This document shows, one piece after another, positions 9,110 to 33,650 of a DNA stretch of 54,134 nucleotides. The notes below the pieces were generated by a model that did not search any database, was not told the DNA's origin, and saw nothing but the letters and a program-made list of their open reading frames with translations. The DNA comes from Candidatus Hodarchaeota archaeon. GTDB lineage: Archaea > Asgardarchaeota > Heimdallarchaeia > Hodarchaeales > Hodarchaeaceae. The position numbers and the translations under genes were made by a program. The first letter of the stretch is position 1; the number at the start of each line of letters is the position of its first letter. Where the stretch lies: NCBI GenBank assembly GCA_016839785.1, contig JAEOTQ010000189.1, forward strand, positions 1 to 54,134. The letters are read 5' to 3'.

Positions 9110-9637
9110 CTAACCTAATTGAAAAGTCTTGATGTTACCCTCAGGATTTCTCATGCTGTTAAAAACTTGAATATATTGATCCTCAGTTAGATTGGGTTTT
9201 TCTGAAATCTTAAGATGTTCAGATAAGAACCCTAAGGATAGAACATTTACAGCTCCAGTTACTTTGTTTTCATCAGCCCGACGAGTAATTGGTACTCTAT
9301 GCATCTTACCTTTTGTGATTGTTTTTTCTGCAATATCATCGATTGAGTCGGTGTCAACATAAGATATCGTATTTTCAGAAATACATTCGGCAGCGCGCTC
9401 AAAACCTTTTTGATCAAGAGCGATAAAGTAATCTGCGTCTGCATCGCAATAAGGATACGCTATTGGTTCCGAACTAATAACTACGTCACTGAAAATCGGA
9501 CCACCCCTTACAGAAGGTGTATAATCAACAGTAAGTGTAGCGTTAAGATCAGCCGCCATTGCAACTCTTACTAGTGCACTACCAAGGAATTTTATTCCTT
9601 GCCCCCCACGTCCGGAGAAACGAAATTTTACTTTCAT
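9110..9637 (-). CDS. korC: 2-oxoacid:ferredoxin oxidoreductase gamma subunit
   Basis: RFSGRGGQG and DYTPSVRGGPIFSDVVIS motifs; divergent from the delta-alpha-beta genes. Confidence 0.85.
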   Translation of the reverse strand: MKVKFRFSGRGGQGIKFLGSALVRVAMAADLNATLTVDYTPSVRGGPIFSDVVISSEPIAYPYCDADADYFIALDQKGFERAAECISENTISYVDTDSIDDIAEKTITKGKMHRVPITRRADENKVTGAVNVLSLGFLSEHLKISEKPNLTEDQYIQVFNSMRNPEGNIKTFQLG

Positions 9638-9911
9638 AAGTCAGTCATTCCTATTATTTTAAGGTAATCTATTGCTTTTGCTTGAATAACTTCCGTGTCT
9701 TACTTAAATATTTTGGAGATAAAAGTAGTTATATTGTAAATATGAGTAATTATTTTGTAGATATGAATAATCTGTCATATGTCTTTGATCAAGAAACAGA
9801 TTTAAAAACCTCAACATCAAAACGTGAATACAATAAAGATGTATTTACTGGATGATCAAATCAATTTATAGATAACAATCTATTGTTCAAATACCAAGAA
9901 GAGGAAAAGAA

Positions 9912-10193
9912 ATGTTAAACTCGAAAAGAACACCTATGTTAGAGCCTCCAAAAGCCGACAAAGAGTATGAAATTAAAGTTTATACTGATATTTGTGATGG
10001 GTGTGAGTTATGTGTAGAATTTTGTCCATGTAATGTCTTAGAAATTGATATGGACTCCTTTAACAGCCGAATGCTTCACTATGTTAAGGCTAGTGCTCTG
10101 GATAAGTGTACAGGCTGTAAACAATGTGAACGAATATGTCCCACGGTATCAATCATGGTATTAGAAAAAGAAGTACCTCAGGAGGATAAATAA
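9912..10193 (+). CDS. korD: 2-oxoacid:ferredoxin oxidoreductase delta subunit (2[4Fe-4S] ferredoxin-like)
   Basis: Two CxxCxxCxxxCP motifs; directly upstream of the alpha subunit. Confidence 0.85.
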   Translation: MLNSKRTPMLEPPKADKEYEIKVYTDICDGCELCVEFCPCNVLEIDMDSFNSRMLHYVKASALDKCTGCKQCERICPTVSIMVLEKEVPQEDK

Positions 10194-11357
10194 ATGCCTA
10201 GTACAAGCAAATCATCCTCTAAGTCAAAATTGATATTGACTACAGGAAATTATGCTTCAGCTGAAGGCGCTATTGCAGTTGGATGCCGCTTCTTTGCCGG
10301 CTACCCAATAACACCATCATCTGAAATAGCACACTATATGTCGCGTCGTCTTCCGCAAGTAGGAGGGTCATTCATCCAAATGGAAGATGAACTTGCGTCA
10401 ATCGTTGCAGTTGTGGGTGCTTCTTATGCAGGAGTCAAAGCGATGACTGCTACTTCAGGTCCAGGTTTGTCTTTGATGGCGGAAACTGTCGGATTGGGAT
10501 TTATGTTAGAGGCACCAATGGTAATTGTTACGGTTATGCGTGGCGGTCCCAGTACAGGGCAACCCACAAAGGCGTCACAGTCTGATGTGATGCAAACACG
10601 GTATTTATCCCATGGTGATTACGAAATGATTGTTCTAGCGCCTGCTACGGTGCAGGAATGTTACGATTTTTCAATTAAAGCGTTTAATCTGGCCGAAAAG
10701 TATAGAACACCAGTAATAGTTGCCACTGATGGAATAGTGGGGCAAATGATGGAACCAGTTTCTTATCATTCCAATTTTGAAGTAATTACTAGAAAAGGGC
10801 CTCAAGTTCCCCCAGATAAGTATCAACCTTTTGAAGTTCTTGACGATGACTTGGTACCTGGAATGGCAACTGCTGGGTCAGAATATAATTTCTACGTAAC
10901 AGGACTTACACATGACAATACTGGAAGTCCTGATATGACTCCCGAGAGGGAAATTGAACTTGTCAAACGTTTATGCGATAAAATACGACGTGCTCGTCCC
11001 GATATAAACGACTGGGAAGAAAAATATCTAGAAGATGCAGAAACAGTAATTCTCTCTTATGGTATAAATTCTCGTGGTAATCCAGAAGCCGTCGCGCAAG
11101 CTCGTAAAAAAGGACATAAAGTTGGGTATGTTCGACTTAAAACTATATGGCCATTCCCTGATGAACTTATGGAACGATTTGGAAAGTTAGGAGTAAAAAA
11201 GGTACTTGTAACTGAAATGAACTATGGTCAGATTATCCGAGAAGTCGAACGGTTTAGACACCTAGGATTTTCAGTTTCTGGGTTATTAGTACCCACTACA
11301 ATACCATTTAGTCCTGCTTTCATCTATGAAGGCTTAATGAAGGAGGTTAACAGATGA
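10194..11357 (+). CDS. korA: 2-oxoacid (probably 2-oxoglutarate):ferredoxin oxidoreductase alpha subunit
   Basis: FAGYPITPSSE, QMEDE, TATSGPGLSLM and RGGPSTG motifs. Confidence 0.9.
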   Translation: MPSTSKSSSKSKLILTTGNYASAEGAIAVGCRFFAGYPITPSSEIAHYMSRRLPQVGGSFIQMEDELASIVAVVGASYAGVKAMTATSGPGLSLMAETVGLGFMLEAPMVIVTVMRGGPSTGQPTKASQSDVMQTRYLSHGDYEMIVLAPATVQECYDFSIKAFNLAEKYRTPVIVATDGIVGQMMEPVSYHSNFEVITRKGPQVPPDKYQPFEVLDDDLVPGMATAGSEYNFYVTGLTHDNTGSPDMTPEREIELVKRLCDKIRRARPDINDWEEKYLEDAETVILSYGINSRGNPEAVAQARKKGHKVGYVRLKTIWPFPDELMERFGKLGVKKVLVTEMNYGQIIREVERFRHLGFSVSGLLVPTTIPFSPAFIYEGLMKEVNR

Positions 11358-12220
11358 CGACATCAAATGAAGTATTTGTACCAGATCTTGACTATCCAGA
11401 AGATCATCCGCTACATGGACGCTTAAACCTCAACAGGTTTATATTCTGCCCAGGTTGTTTAATTGGAACCGCAATTACGTCTATCACTACATGTTTAGTT
11501 GAGAGAGGATTAACACCTAAAGACTATGCAATTGTCTCAGGAATTGGTTGTACAGGGCGATCAAGTGGCTGTTTCAAAGCGCCCGCGTTTCACGCTACCC
11601 ATGGTCGTGCTATTCCTTTTGCAACGGGATTAAAACTTGCGAATCCAGATTTGGAAGTATTTGTATTGTCTGGAGATGGTGATCTGTTTGCTATCGGGGG
11701 TAATCATTTCATTCATGCATGTCGAAGAAATGTCGAAATCAATGTCATTTGTAACAATAATGGAATTTATGGTATGACTGGAGGACAGTGTGCTCCAACG
11801 ACTTCCATTGGTGATTTTACCTCAACTTCTCCATATGGAAATATTGAACCTCCTTTTAATCTAGTTTCCTTGGCAGCAGCAGCAGGTGCTTCTTTTGTTG
11901 CGCGTTGGCCTGGGTATGACACACTAAGATTAAGAGAAAGTATATTCAAAGCCATGGATAATCCTGGCTTTAGTTTCATTGAAGTTCTTGCTCCCTGTTT
12001 CACTCAATATGGGAGGAAAAACAAGAGGGGTGATGCAGTGAAAATGTTGGAATGGCTCAGGGAAATGGTCGTTATTGATAAAAATTGTCCACCTCATGAA
12101 GCAGAATATTCTCATGAAAACCAAAGAATAGTATGTGGAGAATTTGTCAATAATCCAAGGGAAGGGTTTTCAGAGAAAATTAAGAAACTTAGAGAGACAG
12201 CGCAAAGCAGGAAAAAGTGA
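11354..12220 (+). CDS. korB: 2-oxoacid:ferredoxin oxidoreductase beta subunit (TPP-binding)
   Basis: FCPGC, SGIGC, HGRAIP and GDGD...NNGIYGMTGGQ TPP motif. Confidence 0.9.
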   Translation: MTTSNEVFVPDLDYPEDHPLHGRLNLNRFIFCPGCLIGTAITSITTCLVERGLTPKDYAIVSGIGCTGRSSGCFKAPAFHATHGRAIPFATGLKLANPDLEVFVLSGDGDLFAIGGNHFIHACRRNVEINVICNNNGIYGMTGGQCAPTTSIGDFTSTSPYGNIEPPFNLVSLAAAAGASFVARWPGYDTLRLRESIFKAMDNPGFSFIEVLAPCFTQYGRKNKRGDAVKMLEWLREMVVIDKNCPPHEAEYSHENQRIVCGEFVNNPREGFSEKIKKLRETAQSRKK

Positions 12221-12241: not shown

Positions 12242-14632
12242 ATGACAGAAAGTGTAGACAATGTTGAACAAGATGTGAAAGTGGGTGTTTTTCTATGCAA
12301 ATGTGGAAAGAATATCGCTGGATCAGTAGATATCGATAAAATTGCAGAGCAAGTTAAGGATTTACCTAATGTCGAACTAGTTCAAGTAAATACGTATACC
12401 TGCTCAGACCCAGGTCAAGTAGAAATTGAAACAGCAATAAAAGAACAAGGAATTGAAAGAATTGTTGTCTCTGCTTGTTCCCCACGCTTGCATGGTCCAA
12501 CTTGGAAAAAATTAATGAAAAGAAGCGGTATGAATCCAGAAGTTGTCGAAGTTGCTAATATTCGAGAACAATGCTCATGGGTTCATCTTCATGATAAAGA
12601 AGAGGCTACTGTTAAGGCGATGGAATTAACTGAAATGGCCGTAGCGAAAGCAGCAATGCTTGAACCTGCTGAAGCTACAGTAGTTCCTGTTGAAAAACGC
12701 GTTCTTATTATTGGCGGTGGTGTTGCAGGAATTCAAGCCGCCTTGGATTTAGCTGATGATTATAAAGTAGTTTTGGTTGAAAAAAGTCCCACTATAGGTG
12801 GGAACATGGCATTAATCGATAAAACTTTCCCTACGATGGATTGTTCAATTTGCATTTTGGGTCCTAAAATGGCAGATGTAGGCAATCATGATAATATTTC
12901 ATTAATTGCGAATGCGGAAGTCACTAAAATTTCGGGCTATGTGGGTAATTTTCAAGTTGAAGTTAAAAAACAACCCAGATATGTTGATGAAGATCTCTGT
13001 ACAGCATGCAATGACTGTGTGGATATTTGTCCTGTTAATGTTATTGATGAATATTCAGGAAACTTAGGATGGAGAAAAGCCATCTATATTCCGTATCCCC
13101 AAGCAGTCCCCGCCAGTTATATCATTGATACAGATAATTGTCTTGGTTTAGACGTTCTTGCTTGTGGAAAATGTAAGTCTACATGTGAGAAGGAAGCTAT
13201 TAATTATGAGGATTTGGAAAAAACCTACAAGTATAAAGTGGGTACCATTATTATCTCAACGGGTTTTGAGATGTTTGATGCCTCCAAGATTCCAGAATAC
13301 GGATGGGGCAATTATCCAAATGTAGTTACAACTTTTGAGTTTGAACGATTAATTAATGCTGCTGGTCCAACTTCAGGAGATCTCGTTCGTCCTAGTGATC
13401 TTAAACGTCCCAAAAGTGTAGCTTTTATTCAATGTGTCGGATCGCGTGATCAACGATATAATCCTTACTGCTCAAATTATTGCTGTATGGAGACTATAAA
13501 GGATACTCTGCTAATCAAAGAGCATTGGCCAGATGTCGACATCTCTGTCTTCTTCATTGACATAAGAGCATTTGGGAAAGGGTTTGAAGAACTTTATACT
13601 CGTTCTAGAAGAGAAGGTGTTAAGTACATTCGAGGACGTCCCTCTCAAGTTCAACAGACTGGTCCAAATAATAATCTTATTGTTTCAGTGGAAGATACTA
13701 TGACTGGAACGTTAATTAACAAGGAATTTGAAATGGTTGTGTTGTCAATTGGTGCTGAAGGTCCTAGTTCAAATATTCCTTTCCCAGTAGCAAAAGATAC
13801 TCATGAATTTTATATTGAATCGCACCCGAAGCTTCGTCCAGTAGATACACCCACAGATGGTATCTTCATTGCAGGAGGAGCTGAATCACCAAAAGATATT
13901 CGTGAAGCAGTTACCCAAGCAAGTGCTGCAGCAGGACGAGTCACCAGAGTCTTAACCAAAGGTGAGTTTTCGGTCGAACCTTTATACGCGGTAGTAAATG
14001 CTGAGCTCTGTAATTCATGTGGAATCTGTGCAACCCGATGTCCATATAATGCCATAACAGTAGATAAAGAGAAAAAGACCCCTGCTCATGTAATTCCCGT
14101 TCTATGTAAAGGTTGCGGTACATGTGCCGCTGATTGTCCCCAAGATGCTATAATGATGACGAATTTCACAGATGCAATGATTTTAAGGCAGGTCGATATC
14201 GCATTAAGGGACAATGCCGATGAGAAAGTCATGATTTTTGCTTGTAACTGGTGCTCATACGGAGGGGCTGATTTGGCTGGAACTAGTCGAATTCAGTATC
14301 CTACCAATTCACGTGTAGTGCGAGTTATGTGTTCTGGCAGAATTGACGTAGATTTTATCAAGCGTGCTTTTGAACTCGGAGCTGGTTCTGTAATGCTGAC
14401 AGGTTGCCATCCCCAAGATTGTCATTACATCTCTGGTAACGATTTCGCCATTAAACGTGAACGAAAGATTCGTCGCTGGATGAAGAAGCAAGGAATATCT
14501 GATGATCGCTTTATCATTGAATGGATGTCCGCTGCTGAAGGAAAGAAGTTTGCAGATGTAGTTACCAAAATGGCTGGAATTGCAAAGAAGAACCACAAAG
14601 CAAAACACGTCTCTGAGAAAGCAACAGCATAA
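12242..14632 (+). CDS. hdrA: Heterodisulfide reductase subunit A fused to a C-terminal MvhD domain
   Basis: VFLCKCG, ANIREQCSWVH, GGGVAG FAD site, DKTFPTMDCSIC, EFERL, QCVGSRD...YCSNYCC, two ferredoxin domains, then MvhD motifs CNWCSY, VMCSGR, GCHPQDCHY. Confidence 0.93.
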   Translation: MTESVDNVEQDVKVGVFLCKCGKNIAGSVDIDKIAEQVKDLPNVELVQVNTYTCSDPGQVEIETAIKEQGIERIVVSACSPRLHGPTWKKLMKRSGMNPEVVEVANIREQCSWVHLHDKEEATVKAMELTEMAVAKAAMLEPAEATVVPVEKRVLIIGGGVAGIQAALDLADDYKVVLVEKSPTIGGNMALIDKTFPTMDCSICILGPKMADVGNHDNISLIANAEVTKISGYVGNFQVEVKKQPRYVDEDLCTACNDCVDICPVNVIDEYSGNLGWRKAIYIPYPQAVPASYIIDTDNCLGLDVLACGKCKSTCEKEAINYEDLEKTYKYKVGTIIISTGFEMFDASKIPEYGWGNYPNVVTTFEFERLINAAGPTSGDLVRPSDLKRPKSVAFIQCVGSRDQRYNPYCSNYCCMETIKDTLLIKEHWPDVDISVFFIDIRAFGKGFEELYTRSRREGVKYIRGRPSQVQQTGPNNNLIVSVEDTMTGTLINKEFEMVVLSIGAEGPSSNIPFPVAKDTHEFYIESHPKLRPVDTPTDGIFIAGGAESPKDIREAVTQASAAAGRVTRVLTKGEFSVEPLYAVVNAELCNSCGICATRCPYNAITVDKEKKTPAHVIPVLCKGCGTCAADCPQDAIMMTNFTDAMILRQVDIALRDNADEKVMIFACNWCSYGGADLAGTSRIQYPTNSRVVRVMCSGRIDVDFIKRAFELGAGSVMLTGCHPQDCHYISGNDFAIKRERKIRRWMKKQGISDDRFIIEWMSAAEGKKFADVVTKMAGIAKKNHKAKHVSEKATA

Positions 14633-14690: not shown

Positions 14691-15065
14691 TAATATGCCT
14701 TAAGAACCATTTTAATCAATTTTGTTAAATAAATAACATCCCCAATGGCGTTATCGAACCTTATTGATTTTGTACCTGATCACGAATAATATACTTCCAA
14801 ACCGATTTACCCATATTGGTAGAATCATTATAGTCTCCAACTGGATCAATATATTTCACGATATACAATCCGCCTGTGGTACCTGCTTCAGGGTCCCTAA
14901 TCCATGCATGAATGGGATAGCACTCAAAACGCGTTTTATTTTCTTCAGATTATTCTTCTGGTATACTCAACCAGATAGGTGATGTTGGCCGTGTGTAATC
15001 ACTGGTTGGATCATCCTTATCACAACGTATACGCTGAGGTGCTGAAATATTAAAGATATGATTAA
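14690..15065 (-). pseudogene. Probable gene remnant of unknown family
   Basis: Minus-strand frame reads HIFNISAPQRIRCDKDDPTSDY...IPEE*SEENKTRFECYPIHAWIRDPEAGTTGGLYIVKYIDPVGDY..., protein-like, with an internal TAA at 14950-14952 and no clear start. Confidence 0.35.
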
Positions 15066-15183
15066 TTAGATGATTTATTTCAGGTATCAACACTTTTTAA
15101 TATATGTTCAACCAAAGATAATCTTAAATAATGGATTTGATATTAGTCTATTTAGAACTAAACAAATATAAAAATGATTTGAA

Positions 15184-15816
15184 ATGCTCATTTTATCAAA
15201 ACCTACTTATCCAGAATTTCAAGAATTGTTTTCAAATGACTCGGCCGTTAAAATATTGGCTGCATTATTTCAAATGAGTAACAAACGCAGCTCAGCTGCA
15301 AAACTAGCGTCGATTCTTGGAATTCACATAAGTACAGCCAAAAAACATCTTGAAGCACTTCACAAACATGGCTTTCTGAATAAACATGCAACAAAGAATC
15401 AACCCGGAAAGCCCACATATTATACCCTTAAAACAGATCAAAATTTAATTCTATTAGATCTTAATATCATAACAAAAACTGTAGATTTTAATATTAATGT
15501 TCCAAACGTCTTCATTCGTGAAAAAAAGGGGCTTTACCCACGTATTCAATTCATTTTTGAGAAAGATACAAGTATCAAGACTATTAAAATCAGTATGCGT
15601 ACCAAGGCACACCGTACTATAACTAGAGATCTAAATCTTACAGAAGATGAAGGAAAGTTCTTGAAATACCTTCCTCATCCAACCATGGAGCCATGTTCCT
15701 TAGTAGAGGCATGTAAAAATGCCAACATTACTGGATCAATCCGAATCAAGTCAATATATAATTTTGTTGAAAAATTAACAGACATAGGAATAATTGAGAT
15801 TATTAAAGAGGCATAA
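15184..15816 (+). CDS. Winged-helix (ArsR-like) transcriptional regulator with a C-terminal extension
   Basis: SAAKLASILGIHISTAKKHLEALHKHG HTH and GKPTYYT wing. Confidence 0.75.
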   Translation: MLILSKPTYPEFQELFSNDSAVKILAALFQMSNKRSSAAKLASILGIHISTAKKHLEALHKHGFLNKHATKNQPGKPTYYTLKTDQNLILLDLNIITKTVDFNINVPNVFIREKKGLYPRIQFIFEKDTSIKTIKISMRTKAHRTITRDLNLTEDEGKFLKYLPHPTMEPCSLVEACKNANITGSIRIKSIYNFVEKLTDIGIIEIIKEA

Positions 15817-15834
15817 GATTGGAGTTCAAAAGGG

Positions 15835-16869
15835 ATGAAAAAAAAAAGAGGTGATAATTCAAGTGGAAATGAGTTAAATCCTCGTTTAACTGCTGCATAT
15901 ACTCCAGAATTTAAATTATTCAAACAAAACTTGAACAAAAGATATTATTTGCTAATTTTATTATTTATATTTGAAATTCTACTTTATTTTGCCCAGTCAA
16001 ATAATCCAGAATTTACACCACTTTTCAATTTTTTCTCCACCTCGGTCGTGTTAGTCTTAAATGTTTATTTGTATGTTTTGCTTTGTATTCCTTTAATTTG
16101 GATGTTATTCATAATAACAAGGAGAATAAAAAGTTGGATTTTTGGTATACAAATAATAGTCTATATGCAGGTCGCTCTCGTCTTTTTAATATATCAAATT
16201 ATTGCTGGACCTGATTATTTTCCTATTGTCAGGAGTATTTTGTCTGCTGTATTTTCTACACCCCTGTTAGGAATCATTTTTTTTTACTATCCAGGATTGG
16301 TTTTTGTGGAATTATTATTAATACGTCATCCATTATTTACTACTGGAAGAGATAAAGCCTCTTATTTTGGAAAATCAACAATTTTATCTTCTCAAGCTAC
16401 AAAGATAGATAGTACTGAAAACGGTTATTCTCAAAAAGCTCTTTTTTCAGAATTTAATAGATTAGCTTCTGGTGTTCAATCTGTAAAAGAATTCCAAATA
16501 TTAGGAACAGCCTATGCAAAATTCTTAGGAAAAAAAGGACTAATTATTTACTGGGAAATAACAAACGCAGCTATAAAATTATATCCAAGGTTTCTCATTT
16601 GGTGGCCATCCCTTTTATTCAATCCATTAGGAATGATTTATTTTTTAAATAATATAAGAAAACGTAAAAACCTAACTGTAGTAGAAATAACCTACGACCC
16701 CCCTCAGATTTCTATTCAGGTGTCCCCTGCAGATTACGAAATTCTCGCCAAGGACGTCACCTTTCATCTCCTAGGTCAAAAAGTATTAAAGAAAATAAAA
16801 GAATCACTATTGGCATTTCTGAACGATGATCAGGAAGTTGCATACAATACATTGTTTGGCAATACCTAA
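15835..16869 (+). CDS. Hypothetical membrane protein
   Basis: 4-5 N-terminal TM segments and a soluble C-terminal domain. Confidence 0.65.
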   Translation: MKKKRGDNSSGNELNPRLTAAYTPEFKLFKQNLNKRYYLLILLFIFEILLYFAQSNNPEFTPLFNFFSTSVVLVLNVYLYVLLCIPLIWMLFIITRRIKSWIFGIQIIVYMQVALVFLIYQIIAGPDYFPIVRSILSAVFSTPLLGIIFFYYPGLVFVELLLIRHPLFTTGRDKASYFGKSTILSSQATKIDSTENGYSQKALFSEFNRLASGVQSVKEFQILGTAYAKFLGKKGLIIYWEITNAAIKLYPRFLIWWPSLLFNPLGMIYFLNNIRKRKNLTVVEITYDPPQISIQVSPADYEILAKDVTFHLLGQKVLKKIKESLLAFLNDDQEVAYNTLFGNT

Positions 16870-17083
16870 TTATTCCTTGATACAAACTTTCTTGAGTATC
16901 AATTGCGAAGAAATGCTTTTTTCATTATCCTTTTTTTTTTATACATTTTGATTTTTAGCATGAATTCTTAAGCTGGACGGGAAAAAATTAATAAAATTGC
17001 AATTAAATTCCTTTCTCGTTTATCTGAAAATTCACAGTAATTTTATTATCTTGTAAATAAACTTAAACTAAGGGATTCAAATC

Positions 17084-25103: not shown

Positions 25104-25337
25104 AAGTCTCCACCATTACAAATTTTATTCGACATTAGGTTTATTGTGATTTTATTGAAAAATTTGAACGAAGGGTAAAATTCTACTCTGTAAATAGAAT
25201 TTTCTCCTGATATTCTCGTTCTACAACCGTTGTTTTTCGTTTCCAATTGGAGGAGTACAAGTTCAAATCATTTTTTCCTAATGCTAAAGAGAAAAATATG
25301 AACAGTTCCAAGGTAAATGAAAAGAGAGAAGTCTGCG

Positions 25338-25565
25338 TCAGCTACTGGACGCACGTATTGGGTTTAATCTCCCTGCTAGCATTTGTTGTCGATAATCTTT
25401 GGACACTGTGACCAGTAAACTAGCTGCTTGACGACGAATTCCATAACTCTCGTGAACTGCTAGTGACTCTAGAGTGATATATTGATCCTCGGTCATGTTC
25501 CCACCCTTTTTAACAATATTACGGATTTCCACTAATCTTTGTCTGATGTTTTTTATTTTACGCAT
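25338..25565 (-). CDS. Small hypothetical protein
   Basis: 75-aa ORF with an AGGTGA RBS upstream of the ATG; helical, with a HEAT-like GIRRQAASLL segment. Confidence 0.6.
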   Translation of the reverse strand: MRKIKNIRQRLVEIRNIVKKGGNMTEDQYITLESLAVHESYGIRRQAASLLVTVSKDYRQQMLAGRLNPIRASSS

Positions 25566-26046
25566 ACCATTTCACCTATGTATCCCTATACTAACCACTG
25601 GTTAATAAGATCCGATTATTGTCTTCCTAGAAGATATCTTTGCCCCAGAAACTACCCACTCTTTTTGTATAAGTGAAAACGAATGCCTGAATAGATCATT
25701 TTAATAATAGGAAGGAAAATATACCCACGCTGTGCTTATCAGTTGGCTGGAAGGTAATTTCTATTCTCTCCCCGATCACAAAGGACAAGCACCATTCTAT
25801 AAAAGGAAGTCTAGAGAAATTACTCTTGGTTTTTACAATAATCGATAGATTTACTTTGCTTTTTTGAAATTCTGTTTAAAGACTGTAGCTTGTACAATGC
25901 CATTCGCCTCAAATTACGGAAAAAATACACAAATCAATTAATCACAAACAGGAAACAGACCAATGAAAGCCAAATACAATCTAGCGAAAGACAAATTTAA
26001 CAACGGTCGGATCCTTTTAGCAATCTTTACATAATCGGGTATTTCA

Positions 26047-27258
26047 ATGAAGAAAGACTTTTTCACTATATTAATCATCATTTTTACTGAAGTATTAGGT
26101 TGGAGTTTAATCCTACCATTTTTACCATATTTAGCTACTGATTTAGGTGCTACACCTACCGTTGTAGGGATAATTGTAGCATCATTTGCATTATGTCAAT
26201 TTATCTCAGCACCCATTATCGGAAAACTGAGTGACAAGTATGGGCGAAAACCTCTTCTGTTAATAAGCCAATTTTCCACGTTTATTGGCTTTATTTTACT
26301 GGGTGTAGCAGACTCATTATTCCTTGTGTTATTGTCTCGCATCATCGATGGTTTATTTGGAAGTAATATGACCCTTTCTAGAGCATATTTAGGGGATATA
26401 ACTCGTGACGAGGACAAGAAGACGCAAACCAAATCATTTGGGTATATGAGTACGGCTTTCGGAATAGGTTTTTTTATTGGTCCAGCCATTGGGGGATTCC
26501 TGGCCACAATAGATTATAGTATTCCATCTTTTCTAGCTGCTGGCATTTCAGGAATCACATTGATAATGATCGTATTACTGTTGGAAGAAACAGTCATTAA
26601 CGATAAAGAGTTCAAATTAGTAATCGATGATTTCATTCCGCTAAAAGATTTATTTGAAGGATTTTCAAATCCAGAATTACAATTACTCTTATTTTACTTC
26701 CTTACATTCGTGCTTTCATTTTCTCTAATAACAGCAAATCTAGGGCTTTTCTCCGAGTATCAGTTAGGAGTAGGCCCTGATACGGTGGGTCTTTATCTTA
26801 TGTTTGTAGGGCTAATTAGAGTCGTATTTCAATTGTTAATCTTCCCTAAACTGGTAAATTTCGTGTCGAGAGAGATATTATTTATTTTAGGCCAACTGTC
26901 TATCTTTTTAGCTTACACTCAGATAATTTTTGTTATCTCTGGGATGTACATGTTTGTGATCATGGGCTTATTTTCCATTGGGGCTGGAATTGTAAGACCC
27001 ACCCTTACCAGTGAAATCAGTAGTAAAACTGATTTAAGAAATCGGGGAAAAGTGATGGGAGTTGCAGATTCCCTTCAAAGCCTCTCCCAAATTCTTACAC
27101 CTATCCTAGGTGGATGGATAATTGAAACGATATTTCCAGGATCATTGGGCATCCTGTCAGCAACACTGTTGCTTCCATCCATCGCAGTTTCACTATTCCT
27201 ATTCACAAATCGTGTGAGAGAATCGAAGAACAACTCTTCCTTTGAAGTGGGACAATAA
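26047..27258 (+). CDS. MFS transporter (TetA/DHA1-like)
   Basis: GKLSDKYGRKP motif A, GFFIGPAIGG motif C, about 12 TMs. Confidence 0.92.
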   Translation: MKKDFFTILIIIFTEVLGWSLILPFLPYLATDLGATPTVVGIIVASFALCQFISAPIIGKLSDKYGRKPLLLISQFSTFIGFILLGVADSLFLVLLSRIIDGLFGSNMTLSRAYLGDITRDEDKKTQTKSFGYMSTAFGIGFFIGPAIGGFLATIDYSIPSFLAAGISGITLIMIVLLLEETVINDKEFKLVIDDFIPLKDLFEGFSNPELQLLLFYFLTFVLSFSLITANLGLFSEYQLGVGPDTVGLYLMFVGLIRVVFQLLIFPKLVNFVSREILFILGQLSIFLAYTQIIFVISGMYMFVIMGLFSIGAGIVRPTLTSEISSKTDLRNRGKVMGVADSLQSLSQILTPILGGWIIETIFPGSLGILSATLLLPSIAVSLFLFTNRVRESKNNSSFEVGQ

Positions 27259-27292
27259 TCTGGTGAACCTATTCCAAGAGATTTTCCCAGAT

Positions 27293-28971
27293 TCAGTATT
27301 GCTTTTTCCTTTTGAAAATTGTGAATAGAACACCTGCAATGAGACTACTTAAAAGAAATCCTGGTGCTGTAGAGGTAGGTTCGATAGTAGTCGTAGTAGT
27401 AGCTGTGGAAGGTGAGGGAATTTGTGAGTAGGCCGTACATCCAGATGAATTAATTAATGGGCCTAGATAAACCACCTCTTCCATCACTAGTGGTGTACCT
27501 ATCGTAATACTCTGTATATCACTAAGTCCACGATTATTCGCTGAGTCGTTAGCAACAACATAATATTGGACTCCAGAATTATTTAGAAGAGATGGGATTG
27601 TATACTCATACTGATCCTGATTTAAACTCATTGGAGCATTTTCCCAGTCAATTCCATCTTTGGAATAGAAAATAATGACGGTTGTAGGAGATGAATCACC
27701 TACGAGATTGGTGGTGATTTCTAAGTCTCCACCTGCAACTGGGGACGCTGGAGAATGAGAAGTCGTTATTGAAAGAGAGCCTGTGATTTCATAAGGAGTA
27801 GGAAATTCAAACGTATCAAATAAGACGCCTTCATCAAATTTAAGAGAGTAATTGCCTAAAGCATAGGCATCTATCTGTATTCGATTCCAATCAACGGAAA
27901 TGATAGAATATCCATACCCATATGCTGCAAAAGAAGGTTTTCCTTGAAAAAGCACTTGTTCACCTGTTTCAGGATTGATTTGACGAGAACTTGGAATGTA
28001 CAATGTAGCACCCCCTCCAGCTACAACTACTTGGGAAATGTTTCGTTCTCCAAGAAGTATACGATCATAGAGGTGATCATGGCTAGCTAAATATGCAGTA
28101 ATTGAATTGTTTTCTAAAATTTCCCATAATTCAGTTGCTTGTTCTGGTTCACCAATCAGCTCGGCAAATCTTAAGAGTCCTCTTCCTGAATCCCAGCGGG
28201 AATTAAATGCATAATGTGAAATAACAAATTTGTACTCTGCGTTTGAGCTGGCGAGATCATTTTTTAGCCATTCTAGCTGTTCACCGACTAATTGGTAATT
28301 TGTTTCCAATGGATCGATAATAGTGAAATGAGAAAATCCATAATCAAAAGAATAATACCGTTCATTTCCCCAATGGGAAAAATATCTTCAAAGGTAACCT
28401 CTGCAATATTTTCTGGATCATCGTGGTTCCCAATGGCTGCATACATAGGAATTTCGTGCTGAGCATCATCCCTTACTGTACGGAAATTATCACATTGTTC
28501 TTCGCGTAGTTCTGGTTTAGCTCCATCTCCAGCTTCAATAAGATCCCCTGCTTCAATAATAAAATCAGGTTGATGTTTCAGCATATCAGATATAATTGTA
28601 TAATAGGTTTCAGTTACATCTGTTGTTTGATGAGTCCCACGATTATCACCATAAAATCCAAAGGAAAAAGCTTGAGGTGCACCATCCGAAGGTGCAGTCC
28701 GAAATGAGTAATTTTCAGAATCTCTGAATAAACTATAAGAATATGAAGAATTGGGTTGTAATTTATCAAAAAGTATCTCATGAATCGTGAAGTTATACGG
28801 ATACCCTGGATTCTTTGTTTTATATTATATGACCGCCGAAGTTTCGTCAACCCTATTGACATTCGGGCCCCAGATTGGACAGATGGGAGAGCTTAATTGA
28901 GCTGAAATGGGAGCTAAAATGAATGCAGATGCATACACCGTTATTAATGCAGTAATTGTACCTTTTTTCAA
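27293..28971 (-). pseudogene. Secreted surface-anchored metallophosphoesterase (purple acid phosphatase-like), interrupted
   Basis: TTG start at 28971 with a signal peptide; FN3-like domain; YGDNR, AGDLI, GNHD and SHDH motifs; PGF-type C-terminus. In-frame TAA at 28825-28827 and a frameshift in the G4 run at 28368-28371. Confidence 0.8.
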
Positions 28972-29114
28972 AAATTCATCACCATAATAGGAAAAATGAA
29001 TAGATAATTAGAAGTAAACCTCGTTTTAGAAATTCAGATTAAATACTTGACGAATTCTAGGATTTGACCAAAGAACAAAAACTGTTAAATCGTCAAAGCA
29101 AGTCTTTTGTGGCG

Positions 29115-30107
29115 ATGATTGTGGCATTTAAACTAGACAAAATACCTAAAATTAACTTATGTTTGTTACCTACTCCTATCGTTCCATTAGATCAACTATC
29201 AGATTATCTCGGAGGCCCACGAATTTATATGAAGCGAGATGATCTTACAGGAGTTGCTTTTGGAGGAAATAAAAATCGGAAGCTGGAGTATTTATTAGCC
29301 GATGCCCTTCAACTAGGCGCTGACGTAATTATTACTGAAGGTGCCGTTAACTCGAACCATTGTCTCCAAACAGCGGCTTGTGCGGCTAAACTTGGATTAG
29401 ATTGCGAATTGGTCTTATCAGGAGAAGAACCTGAGAATATAACTGGAAACTTTATGCTCTTCAAAATACTTGGAGTCCCTATTTATAGAGTGGATGATTC
29501 CTCTGAAAGAAGAAGATTGATGAAAAAAAGAGAAAAAGAGTTGATTTCTTCTGGTAAAAAGCCATATATTGTTCCTACTGGGGGATCAAATGCCATTGGT
29601 GCTTTAGGCTATGTAAATTGCGTTTTAGAGGTAGTGAATCAAGCTCAACAGATGAACATGGAATTTACTCATTTTGTACATGCCGCGGGGAGTAGTGGTA
29701 CTCAGGCGGGGATGCTGATTGGAAGAGAATTATATTCTCCAAAGTTAAGCATTGTGACCATAAGCGGGGGAATATCTGGTGAATTTTTAACCATAGAGAC
29801 TAAACAAATCATTAGGGATTTTGAGGCTCAGTTTAATGTAGGATTAGACCTAGATCAAATTTCAGTAGAAGTAGAAACTCGCTATGCAGGTCCTGGATAT
29901 GAAATACCTAGTAAAGAAATGGTGGAAACTGTGAAACTGGTTGCACAATTAGAAGGGGTTTTTCTTGATCCAGTCTATAATGGGAAGGCAATGGTAGGGC
30001 TCATTGATATGATTAGATCAGAGAAAATATCAAAAAAGAATTCAGTCCTATTTCTACATTCAGGTGGAGGTCCATCAATTTTTAATTATAGCCATATATT
30101 TAGTTAA
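29115..30107 (+). CDS. D-cysteine desulfhydrase / ACC deaminase family PLP enzyme
   Basis: PTPI, KRDDLTG.AFGGNK.RKLEY, SNH, GSSGTQAG and LDPVY.GK motifs. Confidence 0.9.
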   Translation: MIVAFKLDKIPKINLCLLPTPIVPLDQLSDYLGGPRIYMKRDDLTGVAFGGNKNRKLEYLLADALQLGADVIITEGAVNSNHCLQTAACAAKLGLDCELVLSGEEPENITGNFMLFKILGVPIYRVDDSSERRRLMKKREKELISSGKKPYIVPTGGSNAIGALGYVNCVLEVVNQAQQMNMEFTHFVHAAGSSGTQAGMLIGRELYSPKLSIVTISGGISGEFLTIETKQIIRDFEAQFNVGLDLDQISVEVETRYAGPGYEIPSKEMVETVKLVAQLEGVFLDPVYNGKAMVGLIDMIRSEKISKKNSVLFLHSGGGPSIFNYSHIFS

Positions 30108-30149
30108 AATTCGACGATTGATGAAGAAACCCAAAGAAGGTGAGTAGGT

Positions 30150-30488
30150 ATGATAGTAGAAAAGTCAGAATGGAAAGTTCCGTTAGAAAGCAGCAAGGAA
30201 CATAAGAAATTATGGGATGGAATGATTGCGAAACAGAAAAGTGAACGCCATCGTTGGTTCTACACAGTATCAAGATTCTACTCTTACATAGAGGATGATA
30301 TTGAATACTGGATGTATTTTGATGAATATGACTCAGAAGATAGCTATAAGAAATGGCATGCTGAATTTGAAGAGATGTCAAAGGCAGAAGAGTTTCAACA
30401 ATTCATCAAAGAATGGACAGCACTTACGATAAAGGATTCAATGATCACCACGACATGGACTGAACATGAAGACCTACGAGTGGAATAG
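30150..30488 (+). CDS. Small hypothetical protein, possibly a dimeric alpha+beta barrel (NIPSNAP-like)
   Basis: RBS AGGTGA; W/Y-rich pattern YWMYFDEYDSEDSYKKW. Confidence 0.55.
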   Translation: MIVEKSEWKVPLESSKEHKKLWDGMIAKQKSERHRWFYTVSRFYSYIEDDIEYWMYFDEYDSEDSYKKWHAEFEEMSKAEEFQQFIKEWTALTIKDSMITTTWTEHEDLRVE

Positions 30489-30520
30489 ATTAAAAAAAAG
30501 AGAAGTGGGAAGAAGAAATT

Positions 30521-32353
30521 CTAATCGGCGAAAAGAATTTCATCCCAAGGCTGACGATATAAAGCTGCTCGTTGGCGTTTTTGATCAAAAATATGACCCA
30601 TCATACCAATAGAACGACCAAGAACAAAGAAACCATTTAACATTTCAGTGTCAACAACATCGTTCTTTTCTTCTTCAGACAGATCTAAATTTTCAAGTAA
30701 ATCCATAAAGCAGATACCTATGCACCCATCGACGTTGAGGATTAAATTATTCCGTTTGGAGGTAGTAATCTTTTCTACTTCAAGGGCATAGTCCAAGAAT
30801 GGATGTTTTTCAAAGTTATTAAAAACAAACTCTTTAAGGAGCTTGACACGGACATCAGGATTTTGAACAGATTTTATTCGGTGCCCAATTCCAGGAATAT
30901 TGATACCTACGACATTCTTCATATAATCGACAAATTCCTGTGGTGCCATCTTTTTGTCCATTGCCAATTTGATATATTTTGCAGTATCAGAAATAGCTCC
31001 ACCAAACCGTGGACCTATTGTTAAGATTCCAGTTGCTAGAGCAGACATTAAATCTTTTCCTGCTCGGGCGGTGACAATCGCATTATGAGCACCAGATACA
31101 GCAGGACCGTGGTCTGATGTCAGCTTAATAACAATTTCAATATAGTCCTGAGCAAACTTTGGCAATTCCTTCTTAAACCACAATATTCCAATGGTGTACC
31201 CAATAGATTTGTTTTCACTAACCAGAGTATCCAATCCCACTCCTGAAAACATGGGAACATCCCCTCGTTCATCAGAAATAGTGCTAATAACGTCCGTAGG
31301 TCGTCGAACAATTCCTAGTTTGGCAGCTTGGGCATAATCCATAGGTAATTTTGGGGGTTCAAACTCATCTACAGGATCAATTTTTCCTTCGGCTTTAAGT
31401 TTTTCAAAGGTTTCTTTGATCTTATCACCTAAATCGTCATAAGAATCAGGAACAATAACACCTACTTCAGCAAGAGCTTTATTCTTAGCATGAGCTGTTT
31501 CTAGATCACTACCTGCCATAGCACCCGCATGACCGAATTGTAAGCCTGCAGGAAGAAGCGCTGCTGCTGTACCAATACACCACATAACGAGGGGTTTGGT
31601 AAGTCTACCATCTTTTATTGCATTGACGATGTCAATTTCTCCAGTACCACCCACTTCACCTAAGCACACCATCATTTTGATTTTGGGATTGACCTCGTAT
31701 CTTAGGAGATGATCAAGTAAAGAAGAACCAGCATATCGATCGCCTCCGATAGCAATACCTTCAAAGACTCCATCAGAATTCTGAGCAATCATAAAGTTCA
31801 TTTCATTGCTCATCCCTCCGCTTTTGGAGACAAAACCAACACTTCCTGGCCGGTAAAGCTTGGATAAAACAACATTTTCTATTGTACCAGCAGTATTTCC
31901 GATTTTAAATGCACCTGCTTGAATTCCTCCAACAGTAGCAGGACCAATGATTACTTTTCCTTTTTCCTTTGCGAGCTTATTCATTTCTCTACTTCTTCGT
32001 TCAGGAATTCCTTCAGCAATAACTGCGACAGTTTTAATTGTCTCTGCATTCAATGCTTCCATAGTTGTAGGATAGGCTGAACGGAAAGATGAGAAGTTGA
32101 TGAGAACGTCAGCATCAGGATGATTTTTAATGGCTAGGGCTAATTTCCGATAAATTGGGACGACTATCTCAGTACCACCCCAGAAGACTTTATGGTAACC
32201 AATAGCACCAGCTTGACTGGGACGAATAATTGCTGCGACTGAAGATGTTTTTCGTTTGCACACAAAATCAAAGTCAAGCATTCGTTGAATAGCATTTCGC
32301 TGAAAACCATAAATTATGGCTTTAGTGTTCCGATTAAATAATTCTCTTGTCAT
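30521..32353 (-). CDS. aclA: ATP citrate lyase large subunit (CoA-binding, phospho-His and citryl-CoA lyase domains)
   Basis: QRMLDFDF, NFSSFRSA, IIGPATVGG, SKSGGMSNE, QFGHAGA (phospho-His), DHGPAVSGAHN, PGIGHRIKS, LILNVDG. Confidence 0.96.
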   Translation of the reverse strand: MTRELFNRNTKAIIYGFQRNAIQRMLDFDFVCKRKTSSVAAIIRPSQAGAIGYHKVFWGGTEIVVPIYRKLALAIKNHPDADVLINFSSFRSAYPTTMEALNAETIKTVAVIAEGIPERRSREMNKLAKEKGKVIIGPATVGGIQAGAFKIGNTAGTIENVVLSKLYRPGSVGFVSKSGGMSNEMNFMIAQNSDGVFEGIAIGGDRYAGSSLLDHLLRYEVNPKIKMMVCLGEVGGTGEIDIVNAIKDGRLTKPLVMWCIGTAAALLPAGLQFGHAGAMAGSDLETAHAKNKALAEVGVIVPDSYDDLGDKIKETFEKLKAEGKIDPVDEFEPPKLPMDYAQAAKLGIVRRPTDVISTISDERGDVPMFSGVGLDTLVSENKSIGYTIGILWFKKELPKFAQDYIEIVIKLTSDHGPAVSGAHNAIVTARAGKDLMSALATGILTIGPRFGGAISDTAKYIKLAMDKKMAPQEFVDYMKNVVGINIPGIGHRIKSVQNPDVRVKLLKEFVFNNFEKHPFLDYALEVEKITTSKRNNLILNVDGCIGICFMDLLENLDLSEEEKNDVVDTEMLNGFFVLGRSIGMMGHIFDQKRQRAALYRQPWDEILFAD

Positions 32354-32366
32354 TTTAAATCCTCCT

Positions 32367-33650
32367 TTAGCTGTCTCCTTTGAGTGATAATGGTACGATC
32401 CGTGTCATATGAGTGTACCTATCATAAACCTCAATAGGAACGCCAATCTCTTCACCGACATCTTTCATTAGTTTGAGGCCTTCCTTTTCATTAGGGCCGC
32501 CTCTTCGGACATATATTTTCACGTTAGCATTCTTTAATTTGTTAGCAGATTTACGTAATGCTGCTACAATACCCATGAAGGTTGCTTTCACATCTGTGAA
32601 GTTTGCAATACCTCCACCGATAAGTAAGATTTTAGGTCGTCCTTGAGGATCAGGTTTTTCTGTTAACACATCAATTACGGTTTGTGCATAGAGTTCTGTA
32701 TGTTCTCTATTGGGATTACCAGAATATTCACCGTAATTACCTAATTCTTTCGCAAATCCCATATCAGCTATTGTATCTGTATATACAACTGAACCACCAC
32801 CACCAGCTACCATAGTCCAAACACGGGCATCTCTATTTAAAATAGTAAATTTCAAAGATGCACCTGTTTTTTCATCCATATCGGCTACAAATTGCTCTTC
32901 TTTAGATAAAACTTGACCAAATGCTCGGGGAAATTTAATGGGCTTGTCTGGATTTGCCCAGGTCTCAATATGTTGGAAGCTTGCAGTATCATCTAATTTC
33001 GCTTTCAGATCTAAGGGAACTACTTTTCCTTCGGGGGTTACAGCAAACGGATTAATTTCAAGAAAGGCAAAATCTTGATCTATATAAACCTTTAATAAAC
33101 CTTTAATGAAGGCAATCAAAGTATCTTTGAGATCACCTAAATCTGGTAATTTACTAGCGAAATCAAACGAATCTACATCAGTACCTATAGGAACAGGAAC
33201 ATGAGTGACTTTATCCCAGTTTTCTTCAACAAATATACCGCCTTCAAAGGAAAAGTGAATGGTATCACTATCCATATCTGAAGTTATTGATACATAAAAT
33301 TCCTTTTCATGGGGTACAAAGGGTTCAACTAGGAATCGGGTAAGAGTTCCTTTTATTCCACCTAATTCGATTTCTTTGTTCATCCTCTCATTAATAAATG
33401 CTTTCAATCCCTCTAGATTGGCATCCAATAATAAAAGGTTAGCTTTACCTCGTTTTCCGAAAAGCTGATCAGGTTTTGCCGCTAGCTTATCTGTATTGAG
33501 CCAAGGATTCTCGGCTACTAATTTGTCCCAATCAGTATCAGGAGTTAATACAGCAAGTTTCCCGTGATAATTGTATGCGGGAAAATACTTTGGCAGTTCC
33601 GTCATCAGTAATTTTTTAGCAGAAAATTCATATATACTCTTTTGTGCCAT
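32367..33650 (-). CDS. aclB: ATP citrate lyase small subunit (ATP-grasp and citrate-binding domains)
   Basis: KPDQLFGKRGK, LEINPF, KLDDTA, VWTMVAGGGGSVVYTD, NYGEYSG, GGIANFTDV, RRGGPN. Confidence 0.96.
   Translation of the reverse strand: MAQKSIYEFSAKKLLMTELPKYFPAYNYHGKLAVLTPDTDWDKLVAENPWLNTDKLAAKPDQLFGKRGKANLLLLDANLEGLKAFINERMNKEIELGGIKGTLTRFLVEPFVPHEKEFYVSITSDMDSDTIHFSFEGGIFVEENWDKVTHVPVPIGTDVDSFDFASKLPDLGDLKDTLIAFIKGLLKVYIDQDFAFLEINPFAVTPEGKVVPLDLKAKLDDTASFQHIETWANPDKPIKFPRAFGQVLSKEEQFVADMDEKTGASLKFTILNRDARVWTMVAGGGGSVVYTDTIADMGFAKELGNYGEYSGNPNREHTELYAQTVIDVLTEKPDPQGRPKILLIGGGIANFTDVKATFMGIVAALRKSANKLKNANVKIYVRRGGPNEKEGLKLMKDVGEEIGVPIEVYDRYTHMTRIVPLSLKGDS

Follow-up and report, generated by a model that had tools for sequence, protein, structure and literature searches.

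A Loosely Arranged Cluster of Citrate-Branch Genes in a Hodarchaeal Genome and Its Compact Counterparts in Other Asgard Archaea

Introduction

Tubeworm symbionts ('Ca. Endoriftia') and Thioflavicoccus mobilis have aclAB in a cluster with acn, idh, and mdh, and their korABCD and tfrAB genes are interleaved with flxABCD-hdrABC; the authors of that work propose a complex that delivers electrons directly to the oxoglutarate enzyme (PMC6315080). In this study, we analyzed a comparable set of genes at positions 9110–33650 of a 54,134-nucleotide stretch of DNA from Candidatus Hodarchaeota archaeon, hereafter the window, which is one whole contig (C168) of an assembly of 4,041,893 bases in 248 contigs (84.52% complete, 3.37% contaminated; all absences from this genome hold within that completeness). 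The set encodes a four-subunit 2-oxoacid:ferredoxin oxidoreductase (Kor), an HdrA–MvhD fusion flavoprotein (HdrA2), an aconitase, an isocitrate dehydrogenase (IDH), and an ATP-citrate lyase (ACL). As in the symbionts, aclAB stands with acn and idh, and a four-subunit kor with HdrA. The symbiont clusters differ in belonging to Gammaproteobacteria and in comprising a type II ACL, a full flxABCD-hdrABC, and tfrAB, whereas in the window korB is followed by a single HdrA–MvhD fusion, with neither HdrBC nor Flx alongside; its relatives have a quinone-type SdhCDAB as fumarate enzyme, and the Asgard host also has a citrate synthase.

Both this gene content and the inference of a reductive tricarboxylic acid (rTCA) cycle for Asgard archaea are already in print. 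ACL was found in most Asgard phyla (10.1101/2022.10.25.513756, 2022 preprint) and ACLA/B in various Asgardarchaeota (PMC11976288, 2025); HdrA–MvhD fusions have been described; and rTCA was inferred for Lokiarchaeia from IDH, Kor, and ACL, with an oxidative TCA cycle for Heimdallarchaeia (10.1101/385732, 2018 preprint). These reconstructions share with the present case the same enzymes, the same phylum, and the same three-way uncertainty on direction, yet in their accessible parts they give presence, not gene order. A literature search, with subscription papers and key supplements outside its reach, returned no description of an Asgard aclBA-idh operon, TCA supercluster, or korCDAB-hdrA2 unit. 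The new points are organizational: a conserved aclBA-idh operon whose IDH has in places been replaced by a non-orthologous one, a nearly complete TCA supercluster in a single Heimdall/Hod-type genus, and an invariant korCDAB-hdrA2 unit, the last being the part most worth experiment. They turn a vague question of direction into specific enzyme and expression tests.

Among known organisms, Asgard archaea stand closest to the eukaryotic host lineage, and the cytosolic citrate branch of eukaryotes is made up of ACL, aconitase, and NADP-IDH. Whether these archaea use ACL to cleave or to make citrate is relevant to models of the host's metabolism during eukaryogenesis as well as to dark carbon fixation in sediments. 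With moderate confidence, we read the genes as part of a TCA set usable in both directions by a facultative heterotroph, ACL and IDH serving citrate cleavage and Kor–HdrA2 handling low-potential electrons.

Results and Discussion

Identity of the Encoded Enzymes

Annotation rested on an open reading frame (ORF) listing with Pfam and NCBIfam scans, and orthologues, solved homologues, and motifs were checked for each protein. The genes concerned are the following.

9110–9637, minus strand: korC-like, gamma subunit of a 2-oxoacid:ferredoxin oxidoreductase (PF01558, 79.7 bits), on the strand opposite korDAB
9912–10193, plus strand: korD, delta subunit of 93 aa, 2x[4Fe-4S] ferredoxin-like (Fer4-family Pfam matches)
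10194–11357, plus strand: korA, alpha subunit (PF01855, 235.7 bits; PF17147; NF006412, 493.5 bits, cut-off 411)
11354–12220, plus strand: korB, beta (thiamine pyrophosphate (TPP)-binding) subunit (PF02775, 114.6 bits; GDG motif at residue 107)
12242–14632, plus strand: hdrA2, HdrA fused to MvhD, 21 bp past korB (PF02662, 144.3 bits, residues 663–778)
17084–19012, plus strand: acn, aconitate hydratase, single-chain, mitochondrial-like
23904–25103, minus strand: idh, isocitrate dehydrogenase, perhaps NADP-linked, from a clade that also includes anaerobic bacteria (PF00180, 220.1 bits)
30521–32353, minus strand: aclA, ATP-citrate lyase subunit combining CoA-binding, phosphohistidine, and citryl-CoA lyase parts
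32367–33650, minus strand: aclB, ATP-grasp and citrate-binding subunit, 13 bp upstream of aclA

An initial annotation, made from the letters of the window, had placed Kor, an IDH-family enzyme, aconitase, and ACL within 9110–33650, and Pfam and NCBIfam matches together with solved homologues bear this out; its gene list holds for korC, korA, korB, hdrA2, acn, idh, and acl, having overlooked korD (9912–10193).

Judged by sequence, the aclB-aclA pair encodes a predicted two-subunit ACL nearest to the Methanothrix and human enzymes. AclA joins PF02629, PF00549, and PF00285 in one 610-aa chain and carries, at residues 274–278, GHAGA, which we take to be the catalytic phosphohistidine motif of ACL. 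It matches the ACLY structures of Methanothrix (Methanosaeta) concilii at 769.8 (6hxi_B) and 766.2 bits (6znw_B), human ACLY at 742.5 (6hxh_A), and the Chlorobium-type enzyme at 434.5 (6hxj_B), against 105.6 bits for succinyl-CoA synthetase alpha and 83.8 for citryl-CoA synthetase (6hxq_A). AclB has the ACL-specific domains PF16114 (264.3 bits, cut-off 26.8) and PF24948 (231.5 bits, cut-off 83), and scores 484.9 bits to 6hxi_A, about 350 to human ACLY, and 172.4 to 6hxj_A. The likeness to M. concilii ACLY-A/B (6hxi, 6znw) thus extends to the two-subunit form, full-length matches, and GHAGA; the organism and the genomic context differ.

The aconitase passes curated cut-offs (NF005558, 960.3 vs. 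612 bits; TIGR01342, 943 vs. 719.15), and its best solved homologue is mitochondrial aconitase (1aco_A, 345.2 bits, residues 4–636). SCTN at 295 and CGPC at 356 hold the cysteines that are presumably the cluster ligands. An AcnA is also encoded, on contig C245.

The IDH scores under every NCBIfam cut-off (best NF006673, 247.2 vs. 509; LEU3_arch, 243.3 vs. 409.8), and no curated model covers its clade. The initial annotation had allowed for a homoisocitrate- or isopropylmalate-pathway enzyme. In an alignment (A1) of the window IDH with four orthologues, E. coli Icd and LeuB, a paralogue from contig C153, and two acl-linked IDHs of other families, the window protein keeps S113, N115, R119, R129, R153, Y160, K230, D283, D307, and D311 (E. 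coli numbering); we take Ser113 and Asn115 to bind the gamma-carboxylate of isocitrate and the remainder to be the catalytic set. Position 115 is Ile in the C153 paralogue and Leu in LeuB, and the paralogue, whose contig also holds two LeuCD-like pairs, gives its top scores to homoisocitrate and isopropylmalate models. The isocitrate-type residues of the window protein, with a LeuB-like gene standing separately on C153, argue against the homoisocitrate or isopropylmalate identity, and residues and coupling to citrate genes together mark this Iso_dh protein as a predicted isocitrate dehydrogenase. Position 344 is Lys in the window, Arg or Lys in orthologues, and Asp in LeuB; Lys or Arg there, rather than Asp, presumably points to NADP. 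Residue 344 would thus suggest an NADP-linked enzyme, whereas the nearest solved chain (6lky_A, 190.3 bits) is titled 'putative isocitrate dehydrogenase, NAD-dependent'.

The closest IDH relatives (81–90% identity) come from metagenome-assembled genomes (MAGs) titled Heimdallarchaeota or Hodarchaeota, followed by Promethearchaeota titles at 68–77% and by Dehalococcoidia, Clostridia, and others at 63–67%. An IQ-TREE phylogeny puts the window IDH in an 11-row clade of Heimdall- and Hod-titled sequences (100/99) and 29 bacterial rows in a clade of their own (100/100), an all-Asgard grouping being weakly supported (66/89). These relatives and this clade agree with the probable Asgard host that had been proposed, as does a Ras-family small GTPase, typical of Asgard genomes (53354–53926, minus strand; PF00071, 135.4 bits). 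Among the 80 loci given by an IDH-based contig search, examined for neighbors, 26 have aclB-aclA directly upstream of idh, none of them titled as bacteria; an aconitase of at least 56% identity adjoins the IDH in 3 loci titled as bacteria.

A Loose Layout and Its Compact Relatives

Gene geometry in the window agrees with the four loosely clustered, putatively separate transcription units of the initial annotation: korD and korA abut (0 bp), korA and korB overlap by 4 bp, acn and idh stand alone and convergent, and 2.4–5.4 kb of unrelated genes lie between the units. This spread over both strands favors the view that four housekeeping genes are merely near one another on a contig, as does family f14, where the kor-hdrA2 unit never shares a contig with acn (0/15 genomes) or aclA (0/19). 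We hold that view to be very improbable indeed. With uniform placement, three further given loci would fall within ±24.5 kb of the first in 4.04 Mb with a probability of about 2e-6; relatives show closer rather than weaker linkage; and in other families the operon slot of idh is filled by a non-orthologous IDH. The co-location thus exceeds chance, and the linkage is kept beyond this genome.

To place the window in its phylum, 301 genomes were sampled and AclA was counted at E<=1e-60. It occurs in 80 of them: 19/20 in the window's own Heimdall/Hod-type genus, 43/68 in family f14, 8/76 in f11, 3/3 in f25, and 6/7 in f27, with no match in the other 25 families of the sample, including the rest of the window's class (f3, 0/29; f4, 0/11), a detail beyond the published Asgard reconstructions. 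The IDH type of the window is found in 58 of the 80 ACL-bearing genomes, its aconitase in 65, and a close korA in 33. Where the IDH occurs, it shares a contig with aclA in 52/58 genomes, the gap being at most 400 bp in 42 and at most 7 kb in 51, so that the cluster is indeed conserved, a point the initial annotation had left to be checked. The genes run acn-aclB-aclA(-idh) on a single strand in f11, f25, f27, part of f14, and G130, a genome of the window's genus; acn lies 1316–1441 bp from aclA, on the same strand, in 15 genomes. Two loci, L144 and L145 (f11 and f25), have a non-orthologous, E. coli-type IDH after aclA (51% and 62% identical to Icd), a replacement at the same position that speaks for selection to keep ACL and IDH coupled.

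Four genomes of the window's genus, picked since an sdhA match sat near acl and hence a biased choice, all carry sucD-sucC-fumB-fumA-sdhB-sdhA-sdhD-sdhC ... larA ... aclB-aclA-idh; in three of them, where the contig continues, a convergent acn follows and then hdrA2-korB-korA-korD. In the window genome this cluster is broken, with the suc and fum genes at the end of contig C229 followed by an ABC transporter gene. Only two genomes of the genus have a multi-kb insert between aclA and idh, of 5420 bp in the window and of 6648 bp in its closest relative, G190; the latter insert holds the same MFS and PALP (PLP) genes:

25104–30520, strand not assigned: idh-aclA insert with an MFS transporter, an uncharacterized 338-aa ORF, a pyridoxal phosphate (PLP)-dependent enzyme of the D-cysteine-desulfhydrase family, and an uncharacterized 112-aa ORF

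The loose layout is thus best seen as a derived state of a compact cluster whose core is a predicted aclB-aclA-idh operon, and the window as a new, rearranged member of that conserved cluster. The looseness noted in the initial annotation was real; its derived state, relative to the relatives' compact cluster, is not visible from the window alone.

The larA gene of the supercluster has a counterpart in the window, 7 kb from aclB:

40900–42264, plus strand: larA-like, nickel-pincer 2-hydroxyacid racemase family (PF09861, 128.1 bits; PF21113)

Orthologues (78–80%) sit between sdhCDAB and aclB in all four supercluster genomes (L147:12610-14073, L148:3063-4469, L149:11901-13259, and L150:8235-9617), and the protein could act in connection with the cycle as a racemase of malate or 2-hydroxyglutarate. 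Two other candidates failed. An Lrp/AsnC regulator upstream of aclB (33818–34342) had no match beside aclB in the relatives' loci and was dropped as a conserved regulator, and a 1036-aa gene between acn and hdrA2 in relatives, considered as another Hdr, proved to be a beta-galactosidase.

A separate observation concerns one f11 genome, in which acn-aclB-aclA-idh is immediately preceded, on the same strand, by the gene of a 1036-aa double HdrA-like flavoprotein (L144:9571-12681, minus strand) and a DUF2096 gene. This is a second, independent Hdr–ACL neighborhood.

The Kor–HdrA2 Unit

The korC-like protein is under all NCBIfam gamma equivalog cut-offs (best NF006323, 76.8 vs. 235); its identity is 90% in L137 and 60–65% in Loki-type loci, where the gene is co-directional and upstream of korD. 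KorD has eight Cys in two CxxCxxCxxxCP motifs, invariant in 9/9 aligned orthologues (A3), and its gene lies directly 5' of korA in all 9 relatives' loci with a called ORF; with korD at 9912–10193, the idea of a Kor lacking its delta subunit, with a ferredoxin domain of HdrA2 standing in, was rejected. The best solved homologues of KorA are 1yd7_A (329.7 bits) and 8ys5_A, '2-oxoglutarate synthase subunit alpha' (273.3 bits), and that of KorB is 8ys5_C, '2-oxoglutarate ferredoxin oxidoreductase subunit beta' (205.1 bits); the GDG motif of KorB is presumably a sign of TPP binding. Since the 2-oxoglutarate-specific equivalogs are missed (KorA, NF007206, 368.3 vs. 579; KorB, NF007207, 233.3 vs. 364), we file Kor as a four-subunit 2-oxoacid:ferredoxin oxidoreductase, and from context and 8ys5_C we infer 2-oxoglutarate as the substrate.

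In Methanosarcina, HdrA2B2C2 is an F420H2-oxidizing, bifurcating enzyme. HdrA2 of the window has the same HdrA+MvhD architecture, covering profile positions 1–770 of 777 of NF040770 at 1088.8 bits, 11 bits under the cut-off of 1100; it differs further in belonging to a non-methanogen, in having no adjacent HdrB2C2, and in its 2-oxoacid oxidoreductase neighbor. Residues 11–659 match solved HdrA (5odc_A, 734.3 bits), residues 660–778 match MvhD (9sw2_D, 138.1 bits), and the HdrA part resembles solved bifurcating-type HdrA. No CCG-domain gene that could encode an HdrBC partner lies beside hdrA2 in the window or in 10 relatives' loci; 13 CCG (HdrB-like) matches fall on six other contigs of the genome. 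As side observations, contig C89 (about 17.3–34.0 kb) has two HdrB-like CCG genes and an HdrA-like frame of 1043 aa about 9 kb away from a two-subunit 2-oxoacid oxidoreductase, and the window encodes an F420-dependent PPOX-class oxidoreductase (20998–21423, minus strand; TIGR03618, 104.9 vs. 79.05 bits), which hints that the organism uses F420.

The pairing with Kor is highly regular. A survey of HdrA2 that kept 34 rows of at least 74% identity, some partial, and dropped many paralogues of at most 50%, yielded 31 genomes with HdrA2 and a close korA. Both are on one contig in 28, and in 28/28 korA is upstream on the same strand at 871–916 bp, the length of korB. Five Loki-type loci (L138–L142) have the order korC-korD-korA-korB-hdrA2. 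A close korA (at least 65% identity) occurs in 37/301 genomes, the window's included, and 33 of these 37 bear ACL, vs. 80/301 overall, so that the unit appears to accompany ACL; since the carriers are kin from three families (f1, f2, and f14), this count is no statistical test.

We raise, as a doubtful idea, that KorCDAB and HdrA–MvhD form one physical bifurcating or confurcating 2-oxoglutarate oxidoreductase without HdrBC. The [2Fe-2S] domain of MvhD would dock on KorD, at the site by which MvhD contacts the hydrogenase in methanogens. If true, in the reductive direction a mid-potential donor could drive succinyl-CoA carboxylation, a built-in answer of Asgard archaea to the low-potential-electron demand of the rTCA cycle.

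Cycle and Redox Genes Elsewhere in the Genome

The remaining steps are scattered over other contigs. SucD-SucC and a class I fumarase (alpha and beta) lie on C229, and SdhA-SdhB-FumC on C62, the SdhA/FrdA type scoring 706.2 to TIGR01812 (cut-off 567.3); NadB is on C208. An LDH-like protein (C137) has Arg at the Gln102 position, which we take to be the lactate-specificity position of lactate dehydrogenase (LDH), and this Arg makes it probably a malate dehydrogenase; an Ldh_2-family protein on C183 is another candidate. Citrate synthase (C69; L038:4393-6249, minus strand) occupies residues about 10–395 (TIGR01800, 412.9 bits) of a 618-aa frame and is fused to a PduL-like phosphotransacylase (NF011652, 242.6 bits, residues 422–605); open frames of 615–623 aa are found at the citrate synthase match in G262, G256, G250, G217, and G190 of the same genus. 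Such a fusion could channel acyl-phosphate via acetyl-CoA to citrate. The genome thus seems to code a complete cycle, closable by citrate synthase or by ACL. Missing dicarboxylate-branch enzymes, which the initial annotation had named as evidence against a full rTCA cycle, are not the case here, given SucCD, two fumarases, SdhAB, malate dehydrogenase candidates, and citrate synthase.

Three further loci are recorded here for their bearing on these enzymes. On C194, a citryl-CoA-lyase-like protein of 269 aa (L039:1401-2210, minus strand; NF004869, 279.8 bits, above cut-off) is divergent from a CitF-like citrate CoA-transferase of 551 aa (L039:2509-4164, plus strand; TIGR01584, 487.5 bits, just under cut-off), the pair being a possible ATP-independent second route of citrate cleavage. 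On C229, a protein of 989 aa in which an FAD-linked oxidase is fused to a GlpC-like CCG domain (L035:5125-8094, plus strand) is encoded beside sucCD, as it is in relatives, and scores 386.7 bits, under cut-off, to a YdiJ-like D-2-hydroxyglutarate dehydrogenase model. A SucC/AclB-like paralogue of 431–473 aa (about 211–240 bits to TIGR01016) occurs in 11 same-genus genomes (e.g. G256:C1:4062306-4063496) and was not found in the window genome at E<=1e-60.

With a candidate gene for each step, including two Por/Vor-like four-subunit enzymes, the genome could be read as that of an autotroph running a complete rTCA cycle, in which CO2 would enter via Kor, IDH, and pyruvate synthase, ACL would regenerate oxaloacetate, and HdrA–MvhD would supply reduced carriers. 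Nearly all step genes are in one cluster in relatives, the same inference was drawn for Lokiarchaeia from IDH, Kor, and ACL (10.1101/385732), and the Hdr-linked rTCA cluster of tubeworm symbionts offers a precedent (PMC6315080). We nonetheless consider full autotrophy unlikely. No lithotrophic electron source was seen: the [NiFe]-hydrogenase family gives two weak partial matches (25.7 and 22.2 bits) and no clear hydrogenase, and CdhC was not found in the genome; powering by HdrA–MvhD in the Mvh-hydrogenase sense, as the initial annotation may be read, is not borne out by these matches. The Por/Vor-like enzymes miss the PorA/PorB cut-offs (439.5 vs. 550 and 381.5 vs. 405), and no PycB/OadA-type HMGL-domain carboxylase was found in the genome, PEP carboxylase not having been searched for. 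The presence of citrate synthase also speaks against autotrophy, and the seven POR_N-family oxidoreductase loci of the genome, together with the terminal oxidase of 8/21 genus genomes, suit a heterotroph. Three two-subunit 2-oxoacid oxidoreductases are also encoded in the genome.

Direction of the Pathway

The distribution of the cycle among ACL-bearing genomes bears on its role. Of the 80, 21 have a full-length citrate synthase (at least 400 bits), 30 an SdhA/FrdA above cut-off, and 46 SucC. In the window's genus the full cycle set is present, often with citrate synthase too (10/19 ACL-bearing genomes), as is the case in the window genome. The Loki-type genus g25 (17 ACL-bearing genomes, 84–100% complete) has IDH in 16, aconitase in 15, and kor-hdrA2 in 13, and citrate synthase, SucC, and SdhA above cut-off in 2/17 each. 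There ACL, IDH, aconitase, and Kor persist as a linear module without the dicarboxylate branch, so a closed reductive cycle is not the conserved role. This again counts against complete autotrophic rTCA; the pathway link and enzyme identities of the initial annotation are upheld, a complete rTCA cycle as the conserved role is not.

The same genomes bring in an oxidative use of the module, in which ACL would form citrate, conserving ATP, aconitase, IDH, and Kor would yield 2-oxoglutarate (for glutamate) and succinyl-CoA (for ATP), and HdrA2 would dispose of reduced carriers. No citrate synthase match (E<=1e-40) was found in 34/43 ACL-bearing f14 genomes, an SdhA above cut-off is likewise missing from most ACL-bearing Loki-type genomes, and there acn-aclBA-idh is the sole visible route to 2-oxoglutarate. 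In the five Loki-type loci (e.g. L139:4230-10228 and 10229-11662) the korCDAB-hdrA2 unit is followed by a 4HBT thioesterase (3/5) and a convergent alpha subunit of an ADP-forming acyl-CoA synthetase (5/5; TIGR02717, 277.1 bits, under cut-off), a context that hints at oxidative conversion of a 2-oxoacid to acyl-CoA and on to the acid plus ATP. Glutamate fermentation of the Thermococcus type likewise couples 2-oxoglutarate oxidoreductase to an ADP-forming succinyl-CoA synthetase, though we know of no HdrA in that system. The Loki-type loci resemble it in the adjoining synthetase alpha gene; in the window's genus, no such synthetase gene is adjacent. Citrate-forming ACL is known from Desulfobacter postgatei, and the nearest non-Asgard IDHs are from anaerobic Clostridia and Dehalococcoidia, with aconitase as neighbor in 3 loci and acl in none. 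For the window itself, oxidative use seems improbable to us. Its genus usually has a citrate synthase, beside which ACL would not be needed to form citrate; the NADP-type residue at position 344 of IDH is compatible with both directions; and the published Hdr–Kor–ACL precedent comes from CO2 fixers.

In the reversible, facultatively heterotrophic set that we favor with moderate confidence, citrate synthase would serve the oxidative direction, and the cleaving route would lead from 2-oxoglutarate, CO2, and NADPH through isocitrate and citrate to acetyl-CoA and oxaloacetate at the cost of one ATP. It would be fed from glutamate, or from succinyl-CoA via Kor, and used when succinate oxidation is impossible or when C2 and C4 units are needed from 2-oxoglutarate. 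KorCDAB would give electrons to, or take them from, the HdrA–MvhD flavoprotein, tying the low-potential 2-oxoglutarate/succinyl-CoA couple to flavin-based bifurcation or confurcation; reductive flux, partial or complete, would run on demand and not as obligate autotrophy. The initial caution that direction cannot be read from sequence stands; the direction of the window module is our inference from the Lys/Arg at IDH 344, the bifurcating-type HdrA, the Hdr–Kor–ACL precedent, the L144 neighborhood, and the separate citrate synthase of the genus, beside which a citrate-forming ACL would be redundant. The full cycle set of the genus, with a heme-copper oxidase in 8/21 of its genomes, including the nearest relative, is in keeping with a facultative, (micro)aerobic heterotrophic life of the kind published for Heimdallarchaeia.

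Several observations weigh against this interpretation. The ACL reaction is near equilibrium, so that redundancy with citrate synthase is a weak argument. The quinone-type sdhCDAB (with Sdh_cyt subunits) beside acl in relatives and the heme-copper oxidase of the genus fit an oxidative, respiratory cycle; in the window genome neither the acl-linked second sdhCDAB nor a heme-copper oxidase (COX1) was found. To these are added the 2-oxoglutarate equivalogs missed by KorA and KorB, the HdrBC partner not found beside hdrA2, and the synthetase and thioesterase of the Loki-type loci.

Further Features of the Window

Transcription of the ACL genes is weakly hinted at by an RNA-library run (X9), whose contigs of 151–277 bases match aclA and aclB with 0–3 differences (strand and level not given), one crossing the aclB/aclA junction (32341–32491); carry-over of DNA is possible. 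The same run leaves 14/30 bins of 14700–34400 uncovered, gaps that carry no meaning since the contigs derive from a library of metagenome scale. Of the sampled words of 23800–33700, 0.82 and 0.77 are contained in two metagenome runs from a single study of marine sediment, possibly the source of the DNA; DNA runs with small word shares (X5–X15) were set aside as evidence on habitat.

The window has no Rfam family and no tRNA. A scan for bacterial-type promoters and terminators, which leaves archaeal promoters outside its scope, was uninformative (65 promoter-like vs. 63.4 expected, 14 terminator-like vs. 13.2). Between idh and the MFS gene, 943 bp (25104–26046) hold no ORF above 79 aa and no Rfam match. 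The hdrA2-acn interval contains a helix-turn-helix gene and an uncharacterized 344-aa gene; that between acn and idh contains two DUF134 genes, one DUF5320 gene, the F420-type PPOX protein, an epimerase-family gene, and an O-methyltransferase. The DUF134-DUF5320-DUF134 trio (19309–20974) is found again in the nearest relative (L136), likewise between idh and acn. Farther along, a tandem pair of calcineurin-like phosphoesterase paralogues (457 and 460 aa) occupies 36080–37453 and 37474–38856, both on the minus strand.

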